Below are positions 21,395-36,889 of a stretch of 64,000 nt of DNA, one piece after another (position 1 is the stretch's first letter; every line of letters starts with the position of its first letter). Where the stretch lies: positions 162 to 64,161 of the forward strand of contig JBBAQX010000018.1 in assembly GCA_040400085.1 (NCBI GenBank), in the 5' to 3' direction. Made by a program: the position numbers and the translations under genes. The notes below the pieces were generated by a model. The model had not been told where the DNA came from. It ran no database searches and was given only the letters and a program-made list of their open reading frames with translations. The stretch comes from Lysinibacter sp. (GTDB lineage: Bacteria; Actinomycetota; Actinomycetes; Actinomycetales; Microbacteriaceae).

Positions 21395-21452
21395 AGTGTT
21401 CCTTAGCTAAAGCAATTTTCGAGGCTTAGGAGAGCGGTCTCGCGGGTGTGTT

Positions 21453-22178: not shown

Positions 22179-22306
22179 GGGGATCCTATGTATTGACGGG
22201 ACGGGTTGGAAGAGCTGTGACCAGTGCTATGGGTGCGACAAATCCACCTCATAGCTAGATCATAGCGAGGAGGTGAAATTGTTGCAGGAATATAGAAGCT
22301 TCGCGC

Positions 22307-22942
22307 CTAAAGAAGCTCGTCGTCTTCGTCGTCGTCTTCGTGAGCGGCAAAAATTTCGAGAGCTTCTTCGTCTAAATCATCTTTAGGTAGCCCTGCTTCT
22401 TCACGGATGACGTGGCGCCCGAGGATGAGAAGCTCTCGGTCTTCGAGAAGTATTGCCATCTCGTTGAGGTTAAGATCGGTGCTCTGCTCTATGAGGGAAT
22501 CCATCATTCTTATTCCACGGTTGAACCAGGCAACGGCTTGCTTGGTGTCGTCTACGTCTGAATAGGTGTCTCCGATGAATGAATATACGAGGGGGTCCTG
22601 TGGCTTCTCGTCGCGGATGAGATCGGCAAGTTGTTCGCCTTCGATTTCTTGGCCGGTGCGGAGAAGGGCATCGAGAAGATAGACGCGCTTGTCTGGGGCA
22701 ACGTCGCCTTCGGCGTGCTGCGCGTCACGGGCAGCTTCGTAGGCCTTGATCGGTTCTAGCGCGTCGTAGAAGCACTCTGAGGCGGCAATGTAAAGCGCTG
22801 CGGGGGAGGTGTCCTCGTCGTACTCCGTATTCGGGTCTCTCACTATCGCGAGAAATTCTTCTGCGGTTGCTCTCGCCGCTTCAGGAGTCTCTGCTGCGTA
22901 GCTTGTCTCATCGATGTAGTCCCATGTAACTTTTTTAGCCAT
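22307..22942 (-). CDS. hypothetical acidic protein
   Basis: 211 aa and very D/E-rich with a poly-acidic C-terminus (HEDDDEDDELL). I recognise no motif. Confidence 0.5.
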   Translation of the reverse strand: MAKKVTWDYIDETSYAAETPEAARATAEEFLAIVRDPNTEYDEDTSPAALYIAASECFYDALEPIKAYEAARDAQHAEGDVAPDKRVYLLDALLRTGQEIEGEQLADLIRDEKPQDPLVYSFIGDTYSDVDDTKQAVAWFNRGIRMMDSLIEQSTDLNLNEMAILLEDRELLILGRHVIREEAGLPKDDLDEEALEIFAAHEDDDEDDELL

Positions 22943-23009
22943 GACGCAAGGTTACTCCTTATACTGTGTGATGTTCAGCGGGTTGTGAGAATCGGATAGA
23001 GCGGATCTT

Positions 23010-23408
23010 TTACGAGACTGCTGAGAGCAGTTCTTCTTGGGACCTTATATAGGCCATGAGGATGTCGGCGGTAACGCCGAGTTCGAGGCACCATTGCCCT
23101 GAATCATTGCTGAGCTGAGTGACCCTGGTGAACTCGTCGGCAGTGATGAGCCGTTCTGAGGCAATCCGATCGCAGCGATGTTCGCGTTTCCAATGAGCTG
23201 GGCCAATGGGCATTGGGCGATCATGAAACTCGGCATGAACTATTTCGTGAGCTAGCGTGCAGCGTTCTTGTCTGCTATTCAGGCCCTCTCTCAGAACTAT
23301 GCGACGTGTTTCCTCAAAGTATTCTCCGTCGTTTCCGGGCGAGACCGGTCCGTAGATAACTTCCAGACCCAGTTCGGTTGCGTGATTATAAGGATTGTAG
23401 ATCTTCAT
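23010..23408 (-). CDS. ImmA/IrrE-family metallopeptidase (anti-repressor protease)
   Basis: 132 aa with an HExxH motif (TLAHEIVHAEFH). Its start overlaps the stop of the upstream XRE gene (ATGA), the typical ImmR-ImmA arrangement. Confidence 0.75.
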   Translation of the reverse strand: MKIYNPYNHATELGLEVIYGPVSPGNDGEYFEETRRIVLREGLNSRQERCTLAHEIVHAEFHDRPMPIGPAHWKREHRCDRIASERLITADEFTRVTQLSNDSGQWCLELGVTADILMAYIRSQEELLSAVS

Positions 23409-23842
23409 GTGTAGTCCTCCTCGTTAACGTCAATTGTCGGAGTTTCCTTCGCAACCGCGGGTAGTTCTTGGTCTTGAAGGGTTGCGTTTTTGTTGCCGGG
23501 AAACTCTATTACTGGATTATTCACGATGGTACTGACATTCGTGTTTTCTGATTGGTGAGAGAGAGTCTTGTTCGAAATTGCCACGAAGCGGGCTGCGTCC
23601 ATTGCTGTTGCAAGAACTCGCGCTGGACTCACATCGAGTGCGGAGCAGATGGACCCCAGGTCTTCGACATCTACTACGCGCTGGCCTTTGAGCGTCTTAT
23701 GGAGCGTTGATAAGGGTAATCCTGATTTGAGCGCGAATTGGTGCACGTTGAGTCCTTTGCGCGCCAGCTCTGCCCGGAGCTCACCCGAAACAGCGAGGCT
23801 GAGTGGGCCAATAAATCTTGAGTTGGTTCCTTTTTTCTCCAT
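23405..23842 (-). CDS. XRE-family repressor (ImmR/CI-like)
   Basis: 145 aa with an N-terminal HTH (LARKGLNVHQFALKSGLPLSTLHKTLKGQRVVDVEDLGSICSALDVSPARVL). It is divergent from the HTH gene at 23921. Confidence 0.8.
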   Translation of the reverse strand: MEKKGTNSRFIGPLSLAVSGELRAELARKGLNVHQFALKSGLPLSTLHKTLKGQRVVDVEDLGSICSALDVSPARVLATAMDAARFVAISNKTLSHQSENTNVSTIVNNPVIEFPGNKNATLQDQELPAVAKETPTIDVNEEDYT

Positions 23843-23849
23843 GTAGAAA

Positions 23850-23911
23850 ATAATAGTCAGTATTGAGAAAAATGCAAGAGTGGGTTGCTATTGGTCTTTC
23901 TTGAATATAAT
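23850..23911. promoter_or_regulatory. back-to-back divergent promoters of the genetic switch, both giving (near-)leaderless mRNAs
   Basis: Minus strand: TTGCAT (23877-23872), 16 nt, TATTAT (23855-23850), then 7 nt to ATG 23842. Plus strand: TTGCTA (23885-23890), 15 nt, TATAAT (23906-23911), then 9 nt to ATG 23921. Hexamers were read by eye and there is no experimental support. Confidence 0.5.
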
Positions 23912-23920
23912 CTCATCTAC

Positions 23921-24199
23921 ATGGAAATAAATAACTACACCTGGAGAGTGCAAATCGTTGCTGGTGAAGTCCGGGCCGCGATGGCTCGGAGTGGGGTGAG
24001 CGCAACGATAGTTGCTGAGGGGGCCCGCATACCGGCATCCACTCTTTATCGAAGGCTCAATGCGAGTTCTTCGTTCTCCGTGGAGGAATTGCTCCGAATC
24101 GCAGATTTCCTCCGAGTTGAACCTCGAATTTTTTTCCCAGTTGCCGCTCAGTGGCAAGACATGGAGCGCCGCAGAATGTCGCTCGCAACCACACGTTAG
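23921..24199 (+). CDS. small HTH DNA-binding protein (Cro/antirepressor-position gene)
   Basis: About 92 aa from ATG 23921: MEINNYTWRVQIVAGEVRAAMARSGVSATIVAEGARIPASTLYRRLN...EELLRIADFLRVEP, which is HTH-like. It occupies the position opposite the repressor. Confidence 0.6.
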   Translation: MEINNYTWRVQIVAGEVRAAMARSGVSATIVAEGARIPASTLYRRLNASSSFSVEELLRIADFLRVEPRIFFPVAAQWQDMERRRMSLATTR

Positions 24200-24365
24200 G
24201 ACAACGAATTGATAAACAAAGGAATCTCGCTGCGTACGGGTAGCCCAATCGTGGCAAGCCATGTGCCCAAAGAAAAGACGCCGGTGCATCTGTGTGCGCG
24301 ATGCAAAACTCCTTGGGGTAAATCAGCTCTCCCCTGCCCGAACGAGATTGACAAGAAGGTGTCGT

Positions 24366-25022
24366 GTGTTTGATCAGCTTCACAAAGTAGTAGATATGCT
24401 CACTCTCGGCGAGAGGGTGAGCGTGATTCGCGATGATGGTTCGCTCGCAACCGCTGTACATGAGCCGTTATTACGTCGAATGGAAGGTTCGATCCGGGGG
24501 TCGGTTGGTAAGGGAACCTCAAGCGCTTTGGCTCATGAGAGATCGATGATTGACGGGGATGCGCTGTATCGCTTTCAGCTGATGTCGAATCAGATCCGTC
24601 AGTGGTGCGCATCCCTGGGAGTCGCACCCGCGAGAGATGCGGTCGAGGGCCTCCGATCGTGGGTGTTAGCCTATGAGCAAAGTTTCCCGGAGAAGAAATC
24701 GGTGGAGTTTCGGGTTAAGACTCTTCGCGCTTGGGTTTCTTCGATTCACACGAAGCTGGATCCCTCTCATAAGCAGGATCTACCGGATCCATGTCCGGAG
24801 TGCGGCGCAACCGAATGGTGGAACCCGGCAACTCGGGAATGTCATTACCGCCCACTTGTGGTGCTCTATCGCGACCAACCTGGGTTGGTGGCCACTGCCA
24901 CGGGTCATTGCCGGGCGTGTGACACGACCTGGACAGCTCGGGCTCTCGCCCTGTTGATTGAGAGGGGATCCGAGGTTGAGAACAGGCGCCCGGAAATCTC
25001 TCAGGGGTTGGGTTGTAAGTAG
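24366..25022 (+). CDS. hypothetical phage protein with a C-terminal Cys4 zinc-ribbon (candidate late-gene regulator)
   Basis: The frame is open from 24261. The most plausible start is GTG 24366, preceded by GAAGG, with ATG 24396 as the alternative. The C-terminus reads CPECGATEWW...(31 aa)...CRACDTTW. The function is unknown and the regulator idea is inference only. Confidence 0.5.
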   Translation: MFDQLHKVVDMLTLGERVSVIRDDGSLATAVHEPLLRRMEGSIRGSVGKGTSSALAHERSMIDGDALYRFQLMSNQIRQWCASLGVAPARDAVEGLRSWVLAYEQSFPEKKSVEFRVKTLRAWVSSIHTKLDPSHKQDLPDPCPECGATEWWNPATRECHYRPLVVLYRDQPGLVATATGHCRACDTTWTARALALLIERGSEVENRRPEISQGLGCK

Positions 25023-25057
25023 AGTACAACTCTTTTCGGTGGCATAACGGGTTCTGT

Positions 25058-25090
25058 GGGTCCTCGCGTAACTGCGCGAGGACCCATTTG
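25058..25090 (+). terminator. intrinsic terminator-like hairpin after the early operon
   Basis: GGGTCCTCGCG-taactg-CGCGAGGACCC followed by ATTTGCATTT. Confidence 0.55.
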
Positions 25091-25183
25091 CATTTAATCA
25101 AGGATCGGTCAGAAGAGCCGAAAGGTGTCAGTATGACAAGATCTGATCGGTTTTGGGAATCGGATTGAATCGACTGGGTTTGC

Positions 25184-25241
25184 CGGGTAGTGTTCATAAC
25201 GAGCTCCTACCGGTGTATCTATGCCCGGTAAGGAGCTTTTG
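25184..25241 (+). repeat. repeat unit R1: conserved 38-nt box + terminator-like hairpin + T-run
   Basis: CGGGTAGTGTTCATAACGAGCTCCTACCGGTGTATCTA, then TGCCCGGTAAGGAGCTTTTG. The stem is AGCTCCTACCGG / CCGGTAAGGAGCT (one bulge). Confidence 0.7.
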
Positions 25242-25345
25242 TTGTTCAAGCTCAAACTGCTAGATTGAGTATTTTTCTCACGGTTGATGATTTCTGTTTG
25301 ATTTTGAGAAAAATACCTGATCAGCTTGAATTAGTTGATGATAAT

Positions 25346-25403
25346 CGGGTAATGTTTATAACGAGCTCCTACCGGTGTATCTACACCAGGTCAGGAGCTT
25401 TTG
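25346..25403 (+). repeat. repeat unit R2 (162 nt downstream of R1)
   Basis: CGGGTAATGTTTATAACGAGCTCCTACCGGTGTATCTA, identical to R1 at 36 of 38 positions. The 3' arm, CACCAGGTCAGGAGCTTTTG, differs in sequence but still pairs with the same 5' arm. Confidence 0.7.
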
Positions 25404-25477
25404 ACGTTAACCGGCGATGTGCATTGTCATGAGGTCGGCCGCTTTCGTCGGCTCTCATCACATTCAGCCTTAACCTA

Positions 25478-25506
25478 AACGCCCCGATACTCGGGGCGTT
25501 TCTTTT
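25478..25506 (+). terminator. intrinsic terminator-like hairpin 34 nt upstream of the first tail gene
   Basis: AAACGCCCCGA-tac-TCGGGGCGTTT followed by CTTTT. Confidence 0.6.
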
Positions 25507-25539
25507 ACCCCGTGGCATTGCCGCGATGAAAGGGCGGTC

Positions 25540-25938
25540 ATGACCCAAATAATCATTTTTCCTGATTCCGAGGCGAAGATCATTGAGTATCTCCGAACTC
25601 AGCTAGAGGCGCGCGGCGAAAATCTGCCCGTTGGCCGTTGGCATACCCGTTCGGAGCCTGCCGAACGATTGCGGGTATCCCGCATCGGCGGCAATGCGCG
25701 GAACCTTGTTACTGACTCCGCCCTCATCCAGATCGAGATCTGGGCGTCGGACTTGGCCCGTGGCTCACAGTTGGCGGCGTTAACTCGGGCCTTACTGCTG
25801 GCTTCGCCAAGGACTTCGGACGAAGTCATTCGCGCGGAAGACGTTACCGGCCCGGCACTCATCACTCCGGAAGGTACTGATGATCCTCGTCACCTTTTTG
25901 AGGTCCAGCTCGACTTCCGCGGCACGGCAAGCGACTAA
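25540..25938 (+). CDS. phage tail terminator / tail completion protein
   Basis: 132 aa, immediately upstream of the major tail protein gene. The pattern ...VSRIGGNARNLVTDSALIQIEIWASD...AALTRALL resembles actinophage tail-terminator proteins. The call rests on position and pattern. Confidence 0.55.
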   Translation: MTQIIIFPDSEAKIIEYLRTQLEARGENLPVGRWHTRSEPAERLRVSRIGGNARNLVTDSALIQIEIWASDLARGSQLAALTRALLLASPRTSDEVIRAEDVTGPALITPEGTDDPRHLFEVQLDFRGTASD

Positions 25939-26031
25939 CAACATCCCACCGATGATCATCAACTAATCACACATTCTTATCCTCCAGTTCACCCATTCAA
26001 GGTCAGCGCAACAACCGAAAAGGAAACAAAA

Positions 26032-26610
26032 ATGGGCAATTCAGCCTCCAACGTAATTTCAGGAACCCCTCTCGCCTCCGGCGGCATTCTCGTGGCTCCG
26101 GCAGGGACCAAGGTTCCCGCCGGTATCAGTGATGCACCCGCCGCAGCATTTGTTGTTGCCGGCTACATCGGTGAAGAGGGCATCGTGGAGGGCGGCGAGC
26201 GTTCCACCGAGAAGATCAAGGCTTGGGGCGGTGACACGGTGAAGGTCGTGCAGACCGAGCACTCGCTCACTTACGCTTTTACCTTCATCGAGACGATGAA
26301 CACATCGGTTCTGCAGTCGGTATACGGACCCTCGAACGTGTCCAAGAAGGCGGCGACAGCTTCCACCGGAACAATCCATGAGGTTGCAATCACCGGAGAC
26401 GCCCTGCCTCGTCAGGCATACGTCTTCGAGGTGAAGGATGGCAACTCGCGCATCCGCATCGTTGTCCCCGAGGGCCAGATCACGCAGGTCGGCGAGGTTA
26501 CTTACTCAGACAGCACGCTCGTCGGTTATGCAGTGACCGTTGAGTGCTTCCCCGATGCCCAGGGCGTCAAGGCGCGCAAGTACCTGGACAACGGTATCAA
26601 GGTGGCCTAA
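26032..26610 (+). CDS. phage major tail (tube) protein, non-contractile type
   Basis: 192 aa. Its size, position and beta-rich sequence (TYAFTFIETMN...VFEVKDGNSRIRIVVPEGQITQVGEVTYSD...YAVTVECFPD) are typical of siphovirus major tail proteins. A strong hairpin follows the gene. Confidence 0.7.
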   Translation: MGNSASNVISGTPLASGGILVAPAGTKVPAGISDAPAAAFVVAGYIGEEGIVEGGERSTEKIKAWGGDTVKVVQTEHSLTYAFTFIETMNTSVLQSVYGPSNVSKKAATASTGTIHEVAITGDALPRQAYVFEVKDGNSRIRIVVPEGQITQVGEVTYSDSTLVGYAVTVECFPDAQGVKARKYLDNGIKVA

Positions 26611-26619
26611 GGGTCTCGT

Positions 26620-26707
26620 GGGTTGAGCATCCGTCAATTGAGGGATGCTCAACCCCCACATTCTCCGGGGCGTGAGGTCCTCCTGCGCTGGCCACCTCAT
26701 GCCCCGG
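26620..26707 (+). other. two strong stem-loops between the tube-protein and chaperone genes
   Basis: Hairpin 1 is GGGTTGAGCATCC-N10-GGATGCTCAACCC (13 bp, perfect; 26620-26655). Hairpin 2 is CCGGGGCGTGAGGT-N15-ACCTCATGCCCCGG (14 bp, one G-U; 26665-26707). Neither is followed by a T-run. Confidence 0.7.
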
Positions 26708-26755
26708 TACTACACACATCTTCAGAGTCAGCGCGCTTTATGAAAGGCCAGTGCA

Positions 26756-27061
26756 ATGGTTTACACAGTTCCCGAATCTAAGAAGTCCCTCAAGCAGAAC
26801 CGCTTTGAGTTCAGCATCGACGGTGCCCGTTTTGAGCTACCGAAGTTCAAATTCTTGCCGATCGAGAAGATCGAAGCTCTTGACGCTTCGGAAACGAGCG
26901 GACAATTCTCTACGATGCTTGCGCTCTTCGGGCAGCCCGATACCGCGATTGGTAAGGCGCTGCGCACCCTCGATATCGAGCAGTTTACCGATCTATTTTC
27001 CGCGTGGCAGAAGGATTCCGGGGTGACCGTGGGGGAATCCGAGGCCTCCGCGAACTCCTAA
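26756..27061 (+). CDS. tail assembly chaperone (gpG-like)
   Basis: 101 aa, positioned between the tube protein and the tape measure. It ends ...FSAWQKDSGVTVGESEASANS, like actinophage chaperones. Confidence 0.7.
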   Translation: MVYTVPESKKSLKQNRFEFSIDGARFELPKFKFLPIEKIEALDASETSGQFSTMLALFGQPDTAIGKALRTLDIEQFTDLFSAWQKDSGVTVGESEASANS

Positions 27062-27417
27062 ACGAGTACCCGGAGGCCATCGAGTATGACCTGATCACAC
27101 TCGGCCTGCGGCTCAGCGATCTCGGCTCGGAGCGGCTGTCGTGGCGCGACCTACTCGTCATCGTGACGCGTATGCCACCACACCGCTCCGCGCTGGCGAA
27201 CGAGCGCACGCCCGAAGACGCGAGTTGGACCCTCAGCAACCACCTTCTTGCGGAGGCAATCGACTCGTTACGCCTGCAGCTGTGGGCAAAAACAAAGGAT
27301 GCACAGCGAAATCGCAACCGTCCGAAACCTATACCAAGACCGGGGCGCAGACCGGAAAAAATCGGCAAGAAACCCTTGCCACTCGACTCAATGCGTGACT
27401 GGCTTGGCTGGTCGTAG
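26756..27417 (+). CDS. tail assembly chaperone, -1 frameshift fusion product (gpGT-like)
   Basis: ORF 27004..27417 is in the -1 frame relative to 26756..27061 and overlaps its 3' end. It has no SD or start context of its own. It encodes ...LLNEYPEAIEYDLITLGLRLSDLGSERLSWRDLLVIV..., typical of the T-like extension. The candidate slip site is the G-run in GTG GGG GAA at 27031-27037, but the exact site is unproven. Confidence 0.6.
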
Positions 27418-27426
27418 GAGGGACTC

Positions 27427-29016
27427 ATGGCGATAAGCCTCGAAGTAAGTATTATCAATCCCGGAAAAATCACCGATGCCATAATCGATGCGTTGAAGGG
27501 CGCTGCACAATCGGTGGAGAAAGAAGCCGAAAATCTCGGCGAGAAGCTGATGGACGGGCTCGGCAAAAAAGTTGAAGAAGCAGGAGCCAGCCTGGGAGAA
27601 AAGCTGCTTGCAGGTTTATTTCAGGCGTTCGAAGCCGTTGGTGACGGTTTGTGGAAGGTTATTGGCGATCCGATAAACCAGGGCCTTAGCTCGATGGATG
27701 CTCTTGCCCAAGAAAATACTGCCCTGGTTAGAGGATCGTTCGAAAGTTTAGGAGCCAGTATTCTCGGGTCTTTGACCGCGATGAGTGCCGGTGTGACCGA
27801 CAGTTTTATCGGTGCGCTTGAAGGATGCAAGCAAGGCATCGCTGCTGTTACGGGTGCCCTGCAGGGCGCTATTCAGGGGATTAAGGTTGGTCTTGCCGAA
27901 GCAATTGGGTTAGTGGGGCAGCTAATCACCGCGTTCGGGCTAGCCGCTTTAGCAGCATCAGACTTAGCCGGGCTTATTGCGCTAGCAGGTTCAGGTGGCG
28001 AAAAAGAGGATGAGGGATTTAAATTCAATGGAATTCTTTCCAGCTTAGGCGAGATTGCAAGTGCTATCCCGCATCCGGTAGGTCAGATTATTGGTGCTGT
28101 TCTTTCAATTTACGGTGCTATCTTTCAGTTCTTCGAGGAGACTGATGAAGGAAAAGAAATTTGGGCAGGCTTCGTCTCATGGATAGAGCAGACGCTTACA
28201 GACTTTGCGGTTTTTCTTGTAACTGATTTTGTTCCTGGAGTCCTCGAGGCTTGGGAAGGAATAAAACAATTTTTTTCCGATATGTATCACAACTATATCG
28301 AACCTATAATTCAGGGATTCATAATAGCTCTGCTGGTTTTAGGCGCAATTTTTAATTTTCTCTATGAAAACTTTATACGACCTGTAATTGATGCCATTGT
28401 GACAAAATGGCGAGAATTCTACGAGGGAAACATTCAGCCCATTATTGAGGCTATCAAGGGAAAGCTGAACGAAGCGGGCGGTGCTTTTCGGAGGCTGTGG
28501 GATGAGAATGTGCAGCCAGTGGTGGACAAGCTCAAGGGTGGCCTTGAATCGTTAGGCAATACTGTACGAGAGATTTTCTCGGGAATTGCCGGGTTTGTAG
28601 GAAGCGCTTTTAATGGCCTTATCGACAAAATTCGGGGACCAATAAATACAATTATTGATTTTGTCAATAAAATGATTGATAAAATTAATGGAATTAAAAT
28701 AGACATTCCTGAAATCGCTCGAGCTTTTTTTGGAGGAGCTTCAAGCTTTAGTTTTGACATCCCCAAGATCCCCAAGCTGGCAAAGGGCGGCATCGTCGAA
28801 GCCCAGCCCGGCGGAATCCTTGCCAACATCGGTGAGGGCCGCTACGACGAGGCGGTCATCCCGCTGACCCCGCAGTTCATGAGCGCGTTGGCCGGCGGCG
28901 GCAATAGCGGACGCAACGTCACGGTCGAGCAGCACATCACGACGGTTCAGGATGACCCGCGAATTCAGATGCGACAGTGGTCGCGCGAAGCAGGAAGGGC
29001 GATGAGTCTCGCATGA
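27427..29016 (+). CDS. tape measure protein (short, 529 aa)
   Basis: It sits after the G/GT pair and has a strong SD (TAGGAGG). The sequence is helical and repetitive and rich in A/G/I/L with W/F periodicity (WAGFVSWIEQ, WEGIKQFF, WREFYEGNIQPIIEAIKGKL). The DNA is markedly AT-rich. Confidence 0.75.
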   Translation: MAISLEVSIINPGKITDAIIDALKGAAQSVEKEAENLGEKLMDGLGKKVEEAGASLGEKLLAGLFQAFEAVGDGLWKVIGDPINQGLSSMDALAQENTALVRGSFESLGASILGSLTAMSAGVTDSFIGALEGCKQGIAAVTGALQGAIQGIKVGLAEAIGLVGQLITAFGLAALAASDLAGLIALAGSGGEKEDEGFKFNGILSSLGEIASAIPHPVGQIIGAVLSIYGAIFQFFEETDEGKEIWAGFVSWIEQTLTDFAVFLVTDFVPGVLEAWEGIKQFFSDMYHNYIEPIIQGFIIALLVLGAIFNFLYENFIRPVIDAIVTKWREFYEGNIQPIIEAIKGKLNEAGGAFRRLWDENVQPVVDKLKGGLESLGNTVREIFSGIAGFVGSAFNGLIDKIRGPINTIIDFVNKMIDKINGIKIDIPEIARAFFGGASSFSFDIPKIPKLAKGGIVEAQPGGILANIGEGRYDEAVIPLTPQFMSALAGGGNSGRNVTVEQHITTVQDDPRIQMRQWSREAGRAMSLA

Positions 29017-29840
29017 TTGTTCAATTAGGTGATCTGGTTTTGCCAGATACAGCCGTTCGGGGGTGGCTCTTTTCGAGCCTCACCGATTGGTATTCTCTCT
29101 CGGGTGTGAAAGCCCCGGTCAACGAAAGGCCCCAGTCACACGGGGCCTTTGGTGTTTCTAAGGGGTTTCGGGCCTCGGCCGCGGTGAGTTTCACCGCCCA
29201 CTATCTCGCTGAATCCGAGGACGAACTCCTCGGGGCCTTCGACGATATCCTCGCGGTGGCCAATAGCGGGGTGGTGCCGCTTCGCGTGACGGATGCTCGT
29301 GGCACCACCGAGCGAATGGTGAGCGTGCGGGCAACTGACGTCGAGGACTATCGTGGACGAACATCCGCGTCCATTGATGTCGACTGCCTGGCGAGAGATC
29401 CGCGTCGGTATTCGGTTGATGACTCCTGGCTCGAAACATTCCCTCCGACAGAGAGCAGCGGACTCGTGTGGCCGGTCGTGTGGCCTGCCACCTGGGCGGA
29501 TGAGGGGTCGTCGAGCGGGCGCATCGAGCTGGTGAATCGGGGCGTGATCGAATCTGCCCCGACCTACCGCCTACACGGAGGGTTCAGCACCGCGCTGCTC
29601 ACCGATGTGGATAGCGCTCGCCGGATCGGGCTTGACTATGCCGTGAGGCAGGGGTCTTTCGTGGAGATCGACTTTGCGCGGCGCACCGCGGTTATCGATG
29701 GGCAATCGGATGTTTCGCGCTACCTGGTCCATCGCGAATGGTGGACCGTGGGTGCCCGGTCATCCGTGAGAACACAGTTCGACGTGACGAAAGCGATTGG
29801 CGAGCCGCGATTGCAAGGGAAAGTGAGGTCGGCCTGGTGA
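29013..29840 (+). CDS. distal tail protein (Dit-like)
   Basis: About 275 aa from ATG 29013, which overlaps the tape-measure stop (ATGA). It begins MIVQLGDLVLPDT... and holds the canonical position directly after the tape measure. Confidence 0.6.
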   Translation: MIVQLGDLVLPDTAVRGWLFSSLTDWYSLSGVKAPVNERPQSHGAFGVSKGFRASAAVSFTAHYLAESEDELLGAFDDILAVANSGVVPLRVTDARGTTERMVSVRATDVEDYRGRTSASIDVDCLARDPRRYSVDDSWLETFPPTESSGLVWPVVWPATWADEGSSSGRIELVNRGVIESAPTYRLHGGFSTALLTDVDSARRIGLDYAVRQGSFVEIDFARRTAVIDGQSDVSRYLVHREWWTVGARSSVRTQFDVTKAIGEPRLQGKVRSAW

Positions 29841-30967
29841 CAACCTGGTATGTATTTGAGACGCTCACTGGCCGCATCCTGAGCGAATTTGTGCCGCTGA
29901 ACGGGTCGTGGGATTCGCGACTGAACGAACCCGACAAGGTGGACGTTTCGATCGCGCTTTACGATCCGCTCGAACGAGAACGCGATTGGCGAAATCTTGC
30001 TCTTCCGTGGAAACATTCGCTTGCTGTAGAAGAGTCGGGCCGACTGTATGGTGGGCCTATCCAGCCGCATGCCTACGACGATAATGCACAGACGCTCAAG
30101 ATCACCGCGCTGGGGATTGAGTCGGTTTTTGATCGTAGGACGGTTCTTCCTTTGGCAGCGTTGACGACCCCGCTGGTGACGGCGGCCGGGGTTTCTAACC
30201 CAGCTTTGGCGACCAGTATTCGGGGTGTTGACCTCGGGACGATCGCTAAAAAGCTGTTGCAACAAGCTATGTCCTGGCCCGGGTCGGGGTTGCCAATTGT
30301 GTTCGAGGCTGATCGGGCCGGGATTCATACTTGGTCGTGCAAAGCGATCGAACAGGTGAAGCTGATGGACGCGATCGATAAGCTCACCGATCTCGAAAAC
30401 GGACCCGATTATGCCTTCCGCTTGGAACGCGCCGACTCGTCCCGGTTCGAGTGGCACTTCGTGACGGGGACCCAGACTCAGCCTCGGCTGCAATCCGTTG
30501 GCTCGCACACGTGGGATCTCTCCGCGGAGAACGCGTCGGGCTCCGGTCTAGCGGTGACCACGAATGCCGGCAAGATGGGTTCGCTAGCCTGGGCAACCAC
30601 CGGTGGAAGCTCCAGTGCCGCGTTGGCATCACGCCAATACGATGCGACCCTCGTGGCCCAGGGGTATCCGCTGCTCGAGCTGATTGGCTCGTCGCAGTCT
30701 GGGGTCACCCAGCAGGCCGTGCTGGACGGGGTTGCCCTGGCGCAACTGCGGACGTCACGTAAGCCGTCGGAATTTTGGTCGTTCGAGGCATCCCTCAGCG
30801 AGGTTCCATCGTTGCAGGAATACAGGGTCGGTGACCTCTGCTCCGTGACAGTTCAGGATGACCCGTATATTCCAGATCAGACATACGCTCGCAGGATCGT
30901 AGCCCTCTCGGGAGACGAACAAGGAGATTGGGTCAAGATTACGTGTGGGGAGGTTTACGATGGCTGA
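29837..30967 (+). CDS. tail-associated (Tal-like) baseplate/minor tail protein
   Basis: About 376 aa from GTG 29837, which overlaps the Dit stop (GTGA). It begins VTTWYVFETLTGRILSEF..., like actinophage minor tail proteins, and holds the position after Dit. Confidence 0.55.
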   Translation: MTTWYVFETLTGRILSEFVPLNGSWDSRLNEPDKVDVSIALYDPLERERDWRNLALPWKHSLAVEESGRLYGGPIQPHAYDDNAQTLKITALGIESVFDRRTVLPLAALTTPLVTAAGVSNPALATSIRGVDLGTIAKKLLQQAMSWPGSGLPIVFEADRAGIHTWSCKAIEQVKLMDAIDKLTDLENGPDYAFRLERADSSRFEWHFVTGTQTQPRLQSVGSHTWDLSAENASGSGLAVTTNAGKMGSLAWATTGGSSSAALASRQYDATLVAQGYPLLELIGSSQSGVTQQAVLDGVALAQLRTSRKPSEFWSFEASLSEVPSLQEYRVGDLCSVTVQDDPYIPDQTYARRIVALSGDEQGDWVKITCGEVYDG

Positions 30968-31547
30968 TCCACGTGCGCCGTATGAGGACTATCGTGTGGT
31001 GACCTCTGAGCTTGGTGTGCTTCGTCAAGAGCTTCGACTCCAGCGGTCTGGGTCGCCCGGTTCGTGGTCTGGGGTCGAAACGGGTATTGCTGCTCAGAGT
31101 GGCCTCATACAGACAGCTGCTTTTGCCGCGCCAGCGTCAGCGCTTGCGCCGACAGCTGCTGGAGTGCCTGACCTGCTCGTCTCGCTTGAGACGGATGCCT
31201 GGACTCAGGAAACGATCACCGCGCCTCTTCTTAATCCACAGAACCTCGCCGTCGTGACCTTTGTGGTCTCCGGCGAGATTGCGGATGTGTCGGACGCAGC
31301 TGACGAGACAATCGCCTACCTCACGATTGAGGTCGACGGCGAGGTCGTGAGCCGCTCGCGCCTCGACATTGTTGACGACGCCTTACCGCAGGGCTGGCCT
31401 GGGACAACTTTCTCGAGGGTGTGTACTGCGGTCGTTAACGGCGTCGATGAGGCCGAGGTGCGTGTGCAGGTTGACGCTTTCACCGCAGCGGAAGAACCGA
31501 CGCCTCTCGCCCTGACCGGGCTGACCGTCACAAATACTCACAACTGA
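30960..31547 (+). CDS. minor tail protein, unknown function
   Basis: About 195 aa from ATG 30960, with an 8-nt overlap with the upstream gene. I recognise no motif. Confidence 0.45.
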   Translation: MADPRAPYEDYRVVTSELGVLRQELRLQRSGSPGSWSGVETGIAAQSGLIQTAAFAAPASALAPTAAGVPDLLVSLETDAWTQETITAPLLNPQNLAVVTFVVSGEIADVSDAADETIAYLTIEVDGEVVSRSRLDIVDDALPQGWPGTTFSRVCTAVVNGVDEAEVRVQVDAFTAAEEPTPLALTGLTVTNTHN

Positions 31548-31571
31548 TTTGAACGAACGATTGGAAAAACA

Positions 31572-32621
31572 ATGACACTTCGGAATACTTTCCCGAGCGG
31601 CCTGCCGACTGGGCTGCCGATTCTTGACACGCGCCTTGCTCTTTCTGGGCTCATCGCACGTGATATTACTGGGCAGCCCCGGCTGGGGTTGCTCCCTGAC
31701 TCGCTCGATCCTGTTGTGACGGGTACCTCGTCGATGGCTTACCAGGTTGGACCGTTCCGCGCGGTGACCTCGCGTGGGGGACTTGGGGTTGAGCTGGTCG
31801 CAAACGATGGGGCGGTCAAGGTTGATACGACGGCTGCGCCCTCGACCAATGCCCGGCTTGACGTGATTTACGTGCAGCCTCGGTTTAGTTTGGACGGGGA
31901 TGCGACTGACTTTCCGACTATTGGTGTGGTTCAGGGCGCTACCGCGCCGGTGGCCTCACTCGTGAGGCCACCGATGCCTGCGGGGGCGCTGATTCTTGCC
32001 GTGGCGCAGGTATCGTTTGGGGCCACAAGCACGGCTGGGAGCGGTGTGGTGATCACGCAGCTTGCGCCGTATACGGCGGCTAACGGCGGGACCGTTGTTG
32101 TGCGGGACGTTAGCGACTTGAACGGTTGGGCACCGCATAACAATAGCCGGGCCTATACCCTTGCCGACGGGATTGAATACGTGAGACACAATGGAGTATG
32201 GAAAGGATATTCCAGCGTTGTGCGTCACTTTACGGCTAACTACCGGATGGTAGCGGGGTGGAACGTGTTCTCGACTTCGTCTTGGTGGCAAACCCAGGGT
32301 TCAACGAATGTTGGTTGGACTACAGGCATGGTTGCGCCAGTCGAAGGGCTTTATGAAGTGGAAGCAGGCTTCCATCTGAATTCAATCCACACGGTTATTG
32401 TTGGCCTCAAGCTAAATGACACTGTGGCTCAAGCAACAGGATTTATTGCCGGTTCTACGATCACTGGCAATAGCGGATGGACTTCTGGAATTGTATCGAG
32501 GCAGATCCGTTTGAAGACGGGCGACGTGATTACCCCCGCGGCATACGTACAAACCGTGCCGTCGGTAAATGTTGCAACTGGGCCTCAAACGTATTGCAGT
32601 TTGAGGTTTGTCGGTGTCTGA
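31572..32621 (+). CDS. tail fibre / receptor-binding protein candidate
   Basis: 349 aa, the last large structural ORF. The C-terminal ~130 aa are beta-rich with a C1q/TNF-like pattern (GLYEVEAGFHL...VIVGLKLND...IRLKTGDVITPAAY...TYCSLRFVG). That domain assignment is my inference. Confidence 0.5.
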   Translation: MTLRNTFPSGLPTGLPILDTRLALSGLIARDITGQPRLGLLPDSLDPVVTGTSSMAYQVGPFRAVTSRGGLGVELVANDGAVKVDTTAAPSTNARLDVIYVQPRFSLDGDATDFPTIGVVQGATAPVASLVRPPMPAGALILAVAQVSFGATSTAGSGVVITQLAPYTAANGGTVVVRDVSDLNGWAPHNNSRAYTLADGIEYVRHNGVWKGYSSVVRHFTANYRMVAGWNVFSTSSWWQTQGSTNVGWTTGMVAPVEGLYEVEAGFHLNSIHTVIVGLKLNDTVAQATGFIAGSTITGNSGWTSGIVSRQIRLKTGDVITPAAYVQTVPSVNVATGPQTYCSLRFVGV

Positions 32622-33079
32622 TGAGAAGGCCCGTGGATGCACTAGCATGGCCGCTCAGCTTGTCACGAGTGAGGGCTGAGTTCGGCCCATCTAGGAACCC
32701 AAAAATGATGGGTGCGCTCAAAGCGGTGGCGACACACAGCGGCATGGACTTCCGAGCATCCCTCGGCGAAGCGATCCCCTCCGCCGGACCCGGAACCGTG
32801 ATCCACGCGAAACAAGACCAATTTGGTGGTCTCTACATATGCGTGAATCACGGTTCCGGAGTGATCACCTGGTACTGGCATCTCGACGCTTTCTCCGTCA
32901 GCGAGGGTGACGAAGTTGTGGCAGGCCAAAAACTCGGAGCGGCCGGAAGGACGGGGCTTACCTCGGATGTGCATCTGCACTTCGAGGTGCGGGTGGATGG
33001 GATCCCACGTAACCCGAGGGAATTGGTTGGTGCGGCATCCGCAATCGAGGGGCGCACCTGTCGGTCCACGAATAGATGA
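32621..33079 (+). CDS. M23-family peptidoglycan metalloendopeptidase
   Basis: About 152 aa from ATG 32621, with a 1-nt overlap with the upstream stop. It has the M23/LytM motifs HSGMDF, HGSGVITWYWHL and SDVHLHFEV. Confidence 0.8.
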   Translation: MRRPVDALAWPLSLSRVRAEFGPSRNPKMMGALKAVATHSGMDFRASLGEAIPSAGPGTVIHAKQDQFGGLYICVNHGSGVITWYWHLDAFSVSEGDEVVAGQKLGAAGRTGLTSDVHLHFEVRVDGIPRNPRELVGAASAIEGRTCRSTNR

Positions 33080-33139
33080 TCCGTATGCGGTGCGTCACCG
33101 ATTCGGGTCGAACCAGCACGGCTTAACGAAAGGAGTCTG

Positions 33140-33232
33140 ATGCTACGACGCTTGAAACATTTCTGCGGGTTCTGCCCTCGACAGAAATTGGGATACCGGT
33201 GTAACGGGAAAGACGGGAGGTGCGGCTGGTGA
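33140..33232 (+). CDS. 30-aa Cys-rich small ORF (hand-called)
   Basis: SD AAGGAG lies 4 nt before ATG 33140. The product is MLRRLKHFCGFCPRQKLGYRCNGKDGRCGW, with four Cys arranged CxxC...C...C. Its TGA stop overlaps the GTG of the next gene (GTGA). It falls below the ORF-track cutoff. Confidence 0.4.
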   Translation: MLRRLKHFCGFCPRQKLGYRCNGKDGRCGW

Positions 33233-33540
33233 TTGAGTGGCTATCTGATTATGCAAACGATCTGACCCTCATCCAGACCCTTGTGTGGGTGGGCGCTGCG
33301 ATTACGATTGTGACCTATTTGGTGAAGGCGTATCCGGTGATCCGTCAATTTATGAGAACGATTGAGGCGCTGGCAGACCTTCCCGACTTCATGGCGAAAG
33401 CCGACCGCGAGCTCACCGACAATCACGGGAGCAGCCTGAAGGACGCGATACGCCGGATTGAGAGCTCCGGGGTTCGCACGGAAAAGAAGCTGGACGAGCA
33501 TATCGCTCTGTGTAATGCGAAGGGAGACGAGAATGCATGA
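33229..33540 (+). CDS. phage membrane protein with a single TM helix (lysis-cassette associated)
   Basis: GTG 33229 lies 8 nt after GGGAGG, whereas the track lists GTG 33220. It has a TM helix (LIQTLVWVGAAITIVTYLV) followed by a charged helical tail (NHGSSLKDAIRRIE). Confidence 0.55.
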   Translation: MIEWLSDYANDLTLIQTLVWVGAAITIVTYLVKAYPVIRQFMRTIEALADLPDFMAKADRELTDNHGSSLKDAIRRIESSGVRTEKKLDEHIALCNAKGDENA

Positions 33541-33829
33541 TTCGTTTATCGCGTTGATCCGCACAGTTGTGCCGGCCGGTGTCGGCGCTGTTTTCGCGTG
33601 GATACTGAGCGCCGGAGTCGAGGTCGATCCCTCGGCGCAGGCCGCAGTGGTAACTGGTCTTACAGCTGTGTTTACCGCCGTGTACTACTCGGCAGTTCGG
33701 CTTCTGGCTAGTCGCTGGAGTTGGGTTGGCTGGCTGCTCGGGAGCCCGTCGTCGCCTACATACGGGGCTGGCGCTTCTGCGGTTTCTGACGTCTCGATTG
33801 CGGATGCCCCACAACCCACAACTGAATAA
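33533..33829 (+). CDS. holin-like protein (two TM helices)
   Basis: 98 aa from ATG 33533, with an 8-nt overlap with the upstream gene. It reads MHDSFIALIRTVVPAGVGAVFAWIL...AAVVTGLTAVFTAVYYSAV and lies just before the lysin. Confidence 0.55.
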   Translation: MHDSFIALIRTVVPAGVGAVFAWILSAGVEVDPSAQAAVVTGLTAVFTAVYYSAVRLLASRWSWVGWLLGSPSSPTYGAGASAVSDVSIADAPQPTTE

Positions 33830-33875
33830 GCGCGATTCTCGTCGGTAGATAACGAGGAATATCCGAGAAAATCTG

Positions 33876-33903
33876 AGGCCTGCTCTGTGAGCGGGCCTTT
33901 TTA
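33876..33903 (+). terminator. intrinsic terminator-like hairpin between the holin-like gene and the lysin gene
   Basis: AGGCCTGCTC-tgt-GAGCGGGCCT (one G-U) followed by TTTTTAT. The lysin SD (GAAAGGAG) follows directly. Confidence 0.55.
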
Positions 33904-33918
33904 TATGAAAGGAGAAGT

Positions 33919-34596
33919 ATGGCTATTTCATTTGATGCCTGGGTTGCTCAGGCTGAGAACAAGTGGATTGATCGTGATGGTGCCCCAGCCTATAACGTTT
34001 ATCAATGCCACGATGTGTGGCTTGACTACATGAATAAGGTCTATGATCTGCCCACGTCTTGGGGGTATGCGCCTGGAAATGGGTGGACCAGTAACGTCTG
34101 GACGCAATTCCCTTACAATGCCGGTCTTGCAAATCATTTTGTGAAGGTTGGTCCTGGTGCTGCTCAGCCTGGCGATGTTGCTTTTTGGCCTTCGCCTCAC
34201 GTAGCTGTTGTTTTGGCTGATGCTGGTGGGTCGTTGATTACCCTGTCGCAGAACAACAAGTTTGACAATCCGCCGACGCCAACGGTTCGCACGACGCTCA
34301 GCAAGAGCGGCATGCTCGGGTACTTACGCCCGAAAAATCCACCCAAAAACCCGACTAACCCCACCAATCCAGAAACTGAATTAGGAGAAGATGCAATGAA
34401 AATTTATTTGGGAGCACTTGCAGACGGAAGCCATGCCGGAAAGGTTTGGCTTTTTGGGCCGCGGGGCAAGGTTCATATTGGTAGCCCTGCTGAGGTACGC
34501 CTCCTGCAGCGGTACCTTCGAGAAATTGATGCCGGGCCGCTTCTTGAGGTGGAAGTTGACATTGCGGTTAATCGCTACATATCAAAAGTGCTCTAG
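33919..34596 (+). CDS. CHAP-domain endolysin with a C-terminal (cell-wall-binding?) domain
   Basis: 225 aa. CHAP catalytic Cys context (NVYQCHDVWLDY) and His context (FWPSPHVAVVL), followed by a PKNPTNPTNP linker and a ~70-aa C-terminal domain. Confidence 0.75.
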   Translation: MAISFDAWVAQAENKWIDRDGAPAYNVYQCHDVWLDYMNKVYDLPTSWGYAPGNGWTSNVWTQFPYNAGLANHFVKVGPGAAQPGDVAFWPSPHVAVVLADAGGSLITLSQNNKFDNPPTPTVRTTLSKSGMLGYLRPKNPPKNPTNPTNPETELGEDAMKIYLGALADGSHAGKVWLFGPRGKVHIGSPAEVRLLQRYLREIDAGPLLEVEVDIAVNRYISKVL

Positions 34597-34715
34597 CTAG
34601 GGCTGGATCCCGGCCCCAAAATCGCTGACACCTAAGCTCGAATTGCCATCAGACCCGAATCCGTACTAGTCTTGTCGAGTGCGTTCAAGCCGTTTCCAAC
34701 GGCAAGAGCAAACCT

Positions 34716-34800
34716 GGCGAGTTACCCAAGCGGCCAAAGGGATCTGACTGTAAATCAGCTGTCATCGACTTCGGGGGTTCGAATCCCTCACTCGCCACCA
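34716..34800 (+). tRNA. tRNA-Tyr (anticodon GTA), class II long variable arm, CCA encoded
   Basis: Hand-folded. Acceptor stem GGCGAGT/ACTCGCC, anticodon loop CTGTAAA, variable stem GTC-atc-GAC, T-arm GGGGG-TTCGAAT-CCCTC, and 3' ACCA. Confidence 0.9.
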
Positions 34801-34805
34801 GAAAA

Positions 34806-34841
34806 GCCCGCCCCGACCATCAGGTCGGGGCGGGCTTTTTT
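34806..34841 (+). terminator. intrinsic terminator after tRNA-Tyr
   Basis: GCCCGCCCCGACC-atca-GGTCGGGGCGGGC (13 bp, perfect) followed by TTTTTT. Confidence 0.85.
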
Positions 34842-34891
34842 CGTTGGTGGGGTTGTCCGTGCTGTGGGGTGCTCAGCGCTAGCGAACTCGC

Positions 34892-36133
34892 CTACCGCGT
34901 GAAGCTGTGCCGCCGTCCGAGGGTCACGACGAGTGCGCTGACCACAAGTAACCCGCCACTGCACCACAGCAGCGCGGGAACGCCAGCCCCGTCGAGCAAA
35001 GCCCCGCCGAGAAGCGCGCCGAGAGCGATAGCCGTGTTCCACACCGTTACCAGGATCGATTGCGCGGTGTTGAGCTGAGGCCCATCTGCCACAAACGAAA
35101 CGCCTGCCTGAAACACGGTTGGCGCACCGCCGTAGGCAAGACCCCACAGAACGATTGCCACAAAGGCAGCTGCTCCCAAAACGGCGGGCATAGACACGGT
35201 GGCTGCAAGTGCGACAACCGCGGCTGCGGTAACACCGGTGCTCAAAAGTGCCAGCAACCGGAACCTGCGATCAATAATGGATGCCGTTATCCAGACCCCA
35301 ACCAGCGACGCAGCGCCGAAGGCCAACAGCACCAGGTCGGTGTGCTCCGTAATCCCAGCCCCTCGCATCACCGGAATGATGTAGGTGAAACCCAGGTAGT
35401 GTCCGAGCATGAACGCACCTGTCGCTGCAAGGGCTGGCAATAGCCCAGGAATCAGCAGTGCCCCGAGAAGCGTATGCCGCTCACTCCCCGAAACGGCTTT
35501 CGGAGCCCCGGCAACCGATGGCAGAGCGAGCCGCACCGCGATCGCAAGGCTCAGGGCAATAACAGCGCCGATCATCCACACCGCTCGCCAGCCGAGCGCA
35601 TCGCCAAGAAACGACGAAATCGGCGGGCCAAACGCGAACGCAGCGGATACTCCGATTGTGACTACGGCGAGACCCTGTCCGATGCGTTCCTTTGGCACGA
35701 TTTTTATGACGTACCCGGGGAGCATGCTCCAGAGCACGCCGAGCAGGGCTCCGTTCACGATTCGCACACCGATGATCAGCCAGATCCCCGGGGCAAACGT
35801 GATCGCGACGTTCACCGCAGCGAAACCGAGCAGCACGGCGATGAGGAGTGGTCGCCGCGAGAATCGCTCGAGCAGCATAGTGAGGGGGATCGCGGTGATC
35901 GCTGCCGTGAAAGCGAGGGCACTCACGAGCTGGCCTGTCAAAGCCTCGCTGACCCCGAGTCCGATGCTCATCTGGCTGAGTAGCCCTACGGGCATGGCCT
36001 CGATGAAGCAGATGGTGAAGGCAACGGCACCGAAGAGAATTACCTGCGGCCAGGGCATCCGTAATCGATTTTTGTTGGTGACCGCGGGAATAGCGCGCGT
36101 ATCAGGCTGGTTGAGCTCTGTGAGGGAAGACAT
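34892..36133 (-). CDS. MFS transporter (12-TMS)
   Basis: It is hydrophobic throughout. The start is taken at ATG 36133 (MSSLTELNQ...), 15 nt from the MerR-type palindrome, whereas the track start is 36172. Confidence 0.8.
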   Translation of the reverse strand: MSSLTELNQPDTRAIPAVTNKNRLRMPWPQVILFGAVAFTICFIEAMPVGLLSQMSIGLGVSEALTGQLVSALAFTAAITAIPLTMLLERFSRRPLLIAVLLGFAAVNVAITFAPGIWLIIGVRIVNGALLGVLWSMLPGYVIKIVPKERIGQGLAVVTIGVSAAFAFGPPISSFLGDALGWRAVWMIGAVIALSLAIAVRLALPSVAGAPKAVSGSERHTLLGALLIPGLLPALAATGAFMLGHYLGFTYIIPVMRGAGITEHTDLVLLAFGAASLVGVWITASIIDRRFRLLALLSTGVTAAAVVALAATVSMPAVLGAAAFVAIVLWGLAYGGAPTVFQAGVSFVADGPQLNTAQSILVTVWNTAIALGALLGGALLDGAGVPALLWCSGGLLVVSALVVTLGRRHSFTR

Positions 36134-36147
36134 GTCACAATTTTCGA

Positions 36148-36169
36148 ACCTTAACACTAGTGTTAAGGT
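36148..36169. promoter_or_regulatory. MerR-type operator: perfect 10-bp inverted repeat ACCTTAACAC-ta-GTGTTAAGGT
   Basis: Seen in the 90-nt divergent region between the MFS and MerR genes. On the minus strand, TTGACC directly precedes the palindrome, the layout expected for a long-spacer MerR promoter. Confidence 0.6.

Positions 36170-36817: not shown

Positions 36818-36889
<72 letters not shown>

Follow-up and report, generated by a model that had tools for sequence, protein, structure and literature searches.

In a 64,000-nucleotide (nt) stretch of the genome of a Lysinibacter sp. (GCA_040400085.1, contig JBBAQX010000018.1, positions 162 to 64,161; hereafter the window), we identified a cluster of 17 genes at 23010-34596 that combines an ImmA/XRE switch, early genes, a leader, a siphovirus-type tail set and a lysis cassette, as assigned from the listing of open reading frames (ORFs) and from PHROGs and Pfam matches. 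A first-pass annotation of this DNA had described a siphovirus tail and lysis module under an ImmA/XRE switch, with no head, integrase or sheath genes, and had put it forward as a candidate F-type tailocin. The PHROG, Pfam and tblastn results bear out this architecture, and the role proposed for each gene is backed by PHROGs and Pfam matches. The structural features of an F-type tailocin are present, and we regard the cluster, known here from its genes, as a candidate member of that class. That it is an inducible F-type tailocin-like element, derived from a temperate siphovirus prophage, we consider an even call: the genes and their monocin-like layout speak for this reading, whereas particles and killing go beyond these data, as does maintenance across species, given only two carrier strains that are ~99.3% identical. 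The first pass knew of no F-type system in Microbacteriaceae-like actinobacteria, and our full-text searches of the searchable literature, an incomplete library, likewise returned no description of an actinobacterial F-type tailocin.

The defining absences were examined with head-protein panels drawn from eight phages and prophages related to the cluster, including loci L001-L003, L022, L024 and L025 and Arthrobacter phage Kukla (tblastn, E <= 0.05). Across the whole 64-kb window, there was no match to terminase, portal, VG15, scaffold, capsid, protease or connector proteins, the tail terminator being the only protein found. Searches of the window with the relatives' proteins also detected no integrase and no remnants of early genes, so that the absence of head, packaging and integrase genes claimed in the first pass held. 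The claimed lack of a sheath gene held as well: PHROGs gave no sheath match for any of the 17 ORFs, and the tube is a member of the siphovirus family TTP_17, which sets the cluster apart from R-type tailocins and extracellular contractile injection systems. With head and packaging genes, integrase and attachment sites all absent, the cluster is not an intact temperate siphovirus prophage, and no att-type direct repeats of >= 13 nt are shared by its left and right ends. The switch and the leader are separated by just two genes, and no integrase, excisionase or replication functions are encoded. A satellite resembling phage-inducible chromosomal islands was considered and rejected, as there are no integrase, replication or packaging genes.

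What the cluster does contain appears intact. None of the 17 genes has a stop codon or frameshift, as judged from the ORFs and their translations. Six junctions overlap (ImmA/XRE, tape measure/Dit, Dit/Tal, Tal/195-aa protein, 349-aa protein/M23 and the two membrane protein genes), the same number counted previously, as confirmed from the coordinates. The ImmA and XRE genes are on the reverse strand and all other features described below, including the leader, are on the forward strand.

The first late gene encodes the tail terminator, or tube cap (25540-25938; phrog_123, 3e-22), which is 40% identical to the terminator of a Cryobacterium prophage. It is followed by the tail tube, or major tail, protein (26032-26610; phrog_117, 8e-50; PF25681 Phage_TTP_17), with 71% identity to that of Cryobacterium sp. 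BB736. Chaperone G (26756-27061; phrog_8595, 2e-24) and its T extension in the -1 frame (27004-27417; phrog_1326, 1e-38) share a 58-nt overlap that is the same in the Cryobacterium prophage, as expected for the G/GT pair proposed earlier. DUF5361 is annotated for the tail assembly chaperones on a Logan contig from SRR11430616 that is 100% identical to the window over 15 kb. Runs of G at 27020-27023 and 27031-27035 lie inside the overlap, which suggests a slip site there. The tape measure protein (27427-29016; 529 aa, with hydrophobic segments) has 27 PHROG matches of tape-measure type, the best at 3e-25, and its residues 198-497 align to residues 398-698 of the Cryobacterium tape measure. It is shorter than the tape measures of all relatives for which the length was read (642-1170 aa).

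Four genes encode the predicted tail tip. The Dit-like protein (29013-29840) matches phrog_5577 over its full length (4e-47), phrog_33 'Dit' (2.5e-4) and PF22768 SPP1_Dit (1e-3), and is 47-51% identical to its relatives. Its start was corrected from 28977 to ATG 29013, which forms an ATGA overlap with the tape measure gene. The Tal, or baseplate hub, protein (29837-30967; phrog_1885, 3e-57) likewise has a corrected start, GTG 29837 instead of 29738. Nearly all of its 41 homologues have 371-398 aa, and with 376 aa it is full length. An AlphaFold model based on 27 homologues (predicted local distance difference test score, pLDDT, 91) has the gp27/Mu gp44 hub fold, and Foldseek matched it to hubs including the monocin tip 9j1k_L, 80alpha 6v8i_AE and the tips of Bxb1 and Douge. 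On this model, we assign the Tal-like protein as a gp27-fold hub. The next gene encodes a tip protein of 195 aa (30960-31547) with no PHROG or Pfam match. Only its ~30 N-terminal residues are conserved, and a syntenic gene of 176-186 aa occurs in all relatives. The 349-aa protein that follows (31572-32621; phrog_3398, 2e-39) is annotated as 'minor tail protein' in Microbacterium and Arthrobacter phages. Comparison with its closest relatives revealed an N-terminal part of ~200 aa with 45-70% identity and a variable C-terminal part of ~150 aa with 5-25% identity, a pattern that marks it as probably the receptor-binding protein. Searches of PDB sequences with this protein, the tube and the CHAP-like lysin were uninformative.

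The lysis cassette begins with an M23 peptidoglycan endopeptidase (32621-33079; PF01551, 1.8e-26) with HxxxD and HxH motifs in its translation. Its start is 32621, in a TGATG overlap with the preceding gene, or 32705. Two small membrane proteins follow, TM1 (33229-33540; one hydrophobic segment) and TM2 (33533-33829; two to three transmembrane segments; phrog_10742, 1e-22), the genes of which overlap by 8 nt and were both also called on the identical Logan contig. From their position, they may be holins. The last gene encodes a CHAP-like lysin with a C-terminal module of ~68 aa (33919-34596). The earlier assignment of this protein as a CHAP lysin agrees with matches to phrog_52 (6e-8) and phrog_29272 'endolysin' (5e-6) and with a Cys (YQCHD) and a His (PHVAVV) in the translation, whereas the PF05257 match (3.5e-4, 21 bits) falls under the Pfam cut-off. 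The cluster's own lysis cassette and regulatory switch are thus recognized by homology, with this reservation about the CHAP match.

The switch lies at the left end. An ImmA-like zinc metalloprotease (Peptidase_M78/DUF955), predicted to be an anti-repressor, is encoded at 23010-23408 (phrog_87, 8e-15; PF06114 on the identical Logan gene; HEIVH in the translation). Its gene overlaps by 4 nt that of an XRE/CI-like repressor (23405-23842; phrog_4583 'transcriptional repressor', 1e-10; HTH_31/HTH_3), with which it is predicted to be co-transcribed. Divergent from this pair is a gene for a cro-like helix-turn-helix protein (23885-24199; phrog_4583, 8e-13, residues 23-81), the true start of which is probably ATG 23921 or GTG 23948. 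The previously described ImmA/XRE repressor pair facing a helix-turn-helix gene is therefore confirmed by PHROGs and Pfam matches.

The second early gene is a 253-aa ORF for a zinc-ribbon protein of the DUF7341/phrog_1467 type (24261-25022; PF24030, 2.6e-5; phrog_1467, 1.6e-6). Because family homology begins near residue 37-43, the gene probably starts at 24366 or 24396. The family comprises 262 representatives with four invariant Cys columns (alignment A4), and 47 of 50 members match DUF7341. In all four contexts examined, a DUF7341-type gene is the last before the late genes. Among phages, the 253-aa ORF matched only one gene, Kukla gene 83 (an Arthrobacter phage), which is followed by a 512-bp gap, gene 84 and then the terminase at the genome start. 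Given this order, the DUF7341 gene and the gap of ~0.5 kb behind it are the native front of the late operon. Late activators of Gram-positive phages are encoded directly upstream of terS (PMC3753634, PMC3152322), and from its position the DUF7341 protein is predicted to be the late-gene regulator. As a separate observation, the Kukla gap between genes 83 and 84 (L027 4090-4140) contains a string resembling a tRNA T-arm, GGTTCGATTCCGCC, perhaps the core of an attP site that derives from a tRNA, or else some tRNA-like element.

The leader of the tail operon occupies the 517 bp between the early operon and the first tail gene (25023-25539). The first pass had noted 0.5 kb of non-coding DNA here; we likewise found no head-gene remnant in the gap, but it is densely structured rather than featureless. 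A terminator with a 14-bp stem (25056-25087) directly follows the early operon. Two 63-nt direct repeats, R1 (25184-25246) and R2 (25346-25408), each form a hairpin followed by a U run, and between them is a palindrome, GTATTTTTCTCA-N24-TGAGAAAAATAC (25269-25316). Each repeat is preceded by TTGAAT-N17/18-TA(G/A)TGT, with the hairpin AGCTCC...GGAGCT within ~10 nt and then the U run, so that the leader carries two tandem units (25130-25417) ~162 bp apart. The last terminator (25477-25505) ends 35 nt before ATG 25540 of the first tail gene. In total there are four terminator-like hairpins, with hairpin z-scores of -3.9 to -6.4 and a fold z-score of -7.6 for the leader, and with 0 matches expected by chance. 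Rfam detected only three tRNAs in 22000-37500 and nothing in the leader, and a promoter consensus scan did not call the TTGAAT sites as promoters.

The leader repeats may be promoter-plus-terminator modules or two tiny RNAs. The 35 nt between the last terminator and the first tail gene leave no room for a promoter, so that transcription must begin further upstream and pass terminators on its way; this suggests to us that it starts at the repeat units. The arrangement recalls lambda PR'-tR' and Q. The frame ending in the ATGA overlap at 25540 reads through a terminator hairpin and bears no resemblance to the C-termini of connector proteins, and thus no deletion scar is demonstrable.

We compared the locus with other assemblies. 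The headless junction is present on the identical Logan contig, in a second strain (GCA_025354585.1, L005; 99.3% identical over 3,375 nt) and on a 1.2-kb contig of a third assembly, SRR23617307. It was thus assembled independently three more times and is not an assembly artefact, and its presence in both strains indicates that it predates their divergence. The second strain has two substitutions in the 978 nt of terminator plus tube, too few to calculate the ratio of nonsynonymous to synonymous rates, and 11 in the DUF7341 gene. A 4,626-bp contig (proteins P0442, P0445 and P0448) represents a near-identical strain in which Tal, TM1 and TM2 have 0-1 changes (99-100% identity) and M23 is identical except for its first residues. 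For the 195-aa and 349-aa proteins, the clusters at 90% identity include no member from that strain. The receptor-binding cassette may have been exchanged, with a break point near 32705-32745, or the two genes may be disrupted there.

The tail genes have relatives in complete prophages. Hundreds of homologues of the tube were found, the best non-self match (71%) being that of Cryobacterium sp. BB736, and complete tube-related prophages occur in this genome and in about a dozen more, including those of Microbacterium, Streptomyces, Pseudoclavibacter, Nocardioides and Arcanobacterium. In these relatives, terminase, portal, VG15, scaffold, capsid and three connector genes are directly upstream of the tail terminator. 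The Microbacteriaceae prophages share the gene order of the window from tail terminator through lysis, with tubes 61-71% identical (Cryobacterium, Microbacterium sp. KR10-403) and T chaperones up to 75% identical. The module of Dit, Tal, 195-aa and 349-aa genes has 47-55% identity within Microbacteriaceae; both in Klugiella xanthotipulae and on two metagenome contigs it is part of a complete phage, and in the Klugiella prophage the identity covers Dit and Tal as well as the receptor-binding protein in its N-terminal part. The element is a mosaic, its tube being 71% but its terminator only 40% identical to the Cryobacterium prophage. Unlike the window cluster, the Microbacteriaceae prophages have head genes, and a metagenome relative (L025) has an integrase after the lysis genes.

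As most relatives are complete prophages, the window cluster is a deletion derivative. Judged against the prophage gene order, the native front of the late operon is now joined to the tail terminator gene, everything between the first late gene and the last connector, both included, having been lost, as were the integrase side and the replication/early block. Full prophages in relatives together with a scarred, disrupted copy here had been named in the first-pass annotation as the combination that would count against its reading; the full prophages were found, whereas no gene in this copy is disrupted.

Wider scans added few loci. Single-protein scans found no relative in GTDB genomes (tube) or in IMG/VR (terminator, DUF7341 and Tal), and a metagenome scan found only two distant loci. 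An alignment of 27 Tal sequences was too divergent as a scan query; with an 11-sequence version, six loci were retrieved from IMG/VR, none of them clearly headless. A decayed related prophage is present in Promicromonospora kroppenstedtii (L013, 4100-11300), with fragments of the terminase (85 aa) and the terminator (76 aa) and a partial match to the tube; it serves as a contrast that illustrates neutral decay in these phages.

Two other elements that share the Dit-Tal-tip module (48-55% identity to the window) are also headless. The first is in the complete genome of the cultured relative Lysinibacter sp. HNR (CP121684.1 2240798-2256000, L023 1-15200), in the order repressor, cro, replication initiator, a 112-aa gene, a phrog_1467 gene, a 530-bp gap and the tube, followed by chaperones, tape measure, Dit, Tal, tip genes, amidase, holin, M23 and then cellular genes. 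No head protein and no tail terminator were matched in this element. Its DUF7341-type protein and that of the window are dissimilar in pairwise comparison and joined only via phrog_1467. The second is on a metagenome contig (ERR13998725_186922, L030), where ImmA, XRE and a phrog_1467 gene precede a 365-bp gap, beyond which are a 58-aa gene, a head-tail adaptor, head closure, terminator, tube, tape measure, Dit and Tal (55% identical). Its gap (about 1790-1825) contains the hairpin stem AGCTCC...GGAGCT(U)n, as in the window repeats.

All three elements have a repressor, a phrog_1467/DUF7341-type gene, a gap of 365-530 bp and a module of Dit, Tal, a small tip protein (183 aa in L023 and L030) and a receptor-binding protein, with no head genes. 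However, the right end point differs, being the tube in L023, the adaptor Ad1 in L030 and the terminator in the window. The HNR element is also at a different chromosomal locus, keeps a replication initiator and is without a tail terminator, and the tube genes of the headless elements have only 24-37% identity. The differing right end points and the other locus of L023 indicate independent deletions with one shared left boundary, and on these grounds we consider L023 and L030 parallel derivatives, not orthologues. Selection for controlled expression of tail and lysis genes may account for the shared left boundary.

Some further features of the HNR element concern its lysins. Its M23 gene (L023 14396-14914) and a 62-aa ORF (14930-15118) were overlooked by the gene caller. 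This free-standing ORF corresponds to the C-terminal ~68 residues of the window's CHAP-like protein (34387-34593), and a similar motif, MIRIQSPGRG..., was seen by eye at the end of the L023 amidase (13660-13809). These stretches may represent one module common to the C-termini of lysins, with a role in wall binding or regulation.

Among known systems, the Listeria monocin has a comparable layout. Its locus of 17 genes comprises a CI-like repressor and a DUF955 protease (MpaR), divergent from two early genes, a tail module and a lysis module (PMC6872733, PMC11830787), and its tail proteins are the terminator FtbF, tube FtbG, chaperones FtbH/I, tape measure FtbJ, Dit FtbK, hub FtbL and fibres FtbN-P (PMC11830787). 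The window cluster has the same module order and about 17 genes, is in a Gram-positive host and is likewise without head, integrase or sheath genes. By PHROG and Pfam matches and the hub fold, it has a full non-contractile tail gene set that corresponds one-to-one with FtbF-FtbP, and its hub model matches the monocin tip chain 9j1k_L. In contrast, there is no sequence kinship beyond phage folds (8% identity for the hub match), and the early genes are lmaC/lmaD in the monocin versus DUF7341 in the window. Monocins are conserved across the genus and bactericidal in experiments, whereas the window cluster is known from one species and from genes alone. From these comparisons we conclude that the cluster arose independently of the monocin, from Microbacteriaceae siphophages.

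Independent derivation from siphophage tails is likewise proposed for the F-type pyocins, rhizoviticin (Alphaproteobacteria) and the efagins (Enterococcus) (PMC10811719; bioRxiv 10.64898/2025.12.13.693970). Like the window cluster, each of these lies in the chromosome, encodes a non-contractile tail but no head, and brings along regulators and lysis genes of its own. The Pseudomonas F-type pyocins differ from it in their lambda-like ancestry, the envelope type of the host and their PrtN/PrtR regulators, and the efagins in being intact in all high-quality E. faecalis genomes.

The region is thus the remainder of a temperate siphovirus prophage from which the integrase, the replication genes and all of the head and packaging genes are gone, while the ImmA/XRE-cro switch, the DUF7341 gene with its native leader, the complete non-contractile tail set and the lysis cassette are intact and contiguous. 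Gene content and intactness, the lack of head genes, the synteny with complete phages and the recurrence in other genomes are observed; for induction, antitermination, assembly and killing, we infer the following course. DNA damage or another stress would activate ImmA, leading to cleavage of the XRE repressor and transcription of the rightward operon of cro-like and DUF7341 genes. The DUF7341 protein would then allow RNA polymerase that started in the leader to get past three terminator-like hairpins (R1, R2 and the last terminator) and to transcribe the tail genes. With chaperones G/GT and the 529-aa tape measure, a tube of ~80 nm would be built and capped by the terminator protein, and its tip would consist of Dit, the gp27-fold hub and the 195-aa and 349-aa proteins, the latter binding the receptor. 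Lysis of the producer by the M23 peptidase and the CHAP-like enzyme, together with the membrane proteins, would release headless tails, which would bind and kill related bacteria, as monocins and F-pyocins do.

Several findings weigh against the tailocin reading, and many of them would fit an alternative that we take seriously while placing it somewhat below an even chance, namely that this is a cryptic prophage, a young and inert remnant from which a few large deletions removed head, integrase and replication genes, the rest being intact for want of time to decay and making nothing useful. Most relatives are full prophages (~17 loci), with no old, vertically inherited headless lineage seen, and the Promicromonospora relative is visibly decayed. 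The element is common to only two strains, ~99.3% identical, with no carrier known outside one species. Among 5.8 billion proteins, no relative from another species is closer than 71% (tube) or 55% (Tal). In the second strain, a 1-nt deletion at 24129 (L005 ~900) shifts the last ~23 codons of the cro-like gene, which may be decay or a consensus error of a metagenome-assembled genome, and in the strain of the 4,626-bp contig the 195-aa and 349-aa genes may be disrupted rather than exchanged. Loss of the tail terminator from the HNR element fits plain decay better than a working machine, and the short tape measure in the window points the same way. Large deletions outrun point decay, and intact genes are therefore expected in a young remnant. 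The shared left boundary may stem not from selection but from a bias of mutation in the vicinity of cos or of the leader repeats. The role proposed for the DUF7341 protein also has no structural clue behind it: neither the protein nor its profile matched any PDB sequence, Pfam assigns no function, and a single-sequence AlphaFold model (pLDDT 37) was unusable.

Other observations are harder to reconcile with an inert remnant. All 17 genes are free of stops and frameshifts and have kept their start/stop overlaps. The junction is older than the split of the strains. At least three separate losses (integrase side, early/replication and head) spared exactly the switch, leader, tail and lysis genes, and an inducible lysis cassette without use would be costly to keep. 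In addition, the left boundary is common to all three independent headless elements. These points favor the tailocin-like element derived from a temperate prophage, at the even strength given above.

Much less probable is that the cluster provides tails and lysis for others, with head genes elsewhere in the genome complementing it or capsid-only elements capturing its tails. The window covers 64 kb of the genome, head genes could act in trans from elsewhere, and the Listeria monocin regulator also controls a prophage that resides in the same genome (PMC6872733), a precedent for cross-talk between phage-derived elements. However, the tail terminator is the first late gene, with no head-tail adaptor or head-closure gene before it; there is no terminase, recognizable pac/cos function, integrase or replication gene; and the window contains no partner element. 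We give next to no credence to the idea that the headless arrangement was created when a metagenome-assembled genome was assembled or binned: no close relative is present in the species-representative genome collection, but the junction recurs in SRR11430616 (100%, 15 kb), GCA_025354585.1 (99.3%) and SRR23617307, with cellular genes on both sides in single contigs.

Both flanks are cellular, as the first-pass annotation had stated, with genes for major facilitator superfamily transporters, TetR, ArsR, a glutaredoxin-like protein, YajQ, MerR, tRNAs and an extracytoplasmic function (ECF) sigma factor. The host had been guessed to be Microbacteriaceae-like, and PurL (52034-54361) agrees, with 92% identity to Lysinibacter cavernae, 91% to Klugiella xanthotipulae and 88% to Lysinibacter sp. 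HNR; these identities place the host in the Lysinibacter/Klugiella clade of the Microbacteriaceae. The window has a G+C content of ~56%, like the Lysinibacter sp. HNR locus. The right boundary is marked by tRNA-Tyr (34716-34800, forward strand; ARAGORN, Rfam), 120 bp past the last gene of the element. It was considered as an integration target and rejected, as it is oriented away from the element, to which it presents its 5′ rather than its 3′ end. It has no repeat with the left end. Further right are tRNA-Thr and tRNA-Met (36818-37013) and, unrelated to the element, an ECF-type sigma factor fused to a lengthy C-terminal extension (458 aa) and, next to it, a surface protein of 1,054 aa that carries SdrD-like and DUF11 repeats (38073-42718). 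Directly left of ImmA (20669-22942) are two tandem paralogous 241-aa genes (weakly PsbP_2-like) and a gene for a very acidic 211-aa protein, none with an assigned family, which may be cargo of the former prophage or host genes.

If the cluster is a remnant only, it is an ordinary cryptic prophage. If it is a tailocin, F-type tailocins, which are known from Pseudomonas, Listeria, Enterococcus and one alphaproteobacterium, would reach the high-G+C Gram-positive phylum, adding an independent case for how a flexible tail without DNA kills a Gram-positive cell. It would also offer a compact, retargetable scaffold (~10 kb, with a modular 349-aa receptor-binding protein) for Actinomycetota, including plant and animal pathogens. 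A bolder proposal, which we advance tentatively and think rather unlikely as a whole, is that the Lysinibacter/Klugiella branch has repeatedly made stress-inducible F-type tailocins, the first described in Actinomycetota, each keeping DUF7341 and the leader as a Q-like antitermination switch, with the receptor-binding cassette swapped among strains that are otherwise identical to retarget killing. Complete prophages and three independently beheaded derivatives with one tail-tip module form a set of intermediates that could distinguish selected domestication from biased decay. Through them, DUF7341, a family of unknown function, gains a testable role as the late-gene switch of actinophages.

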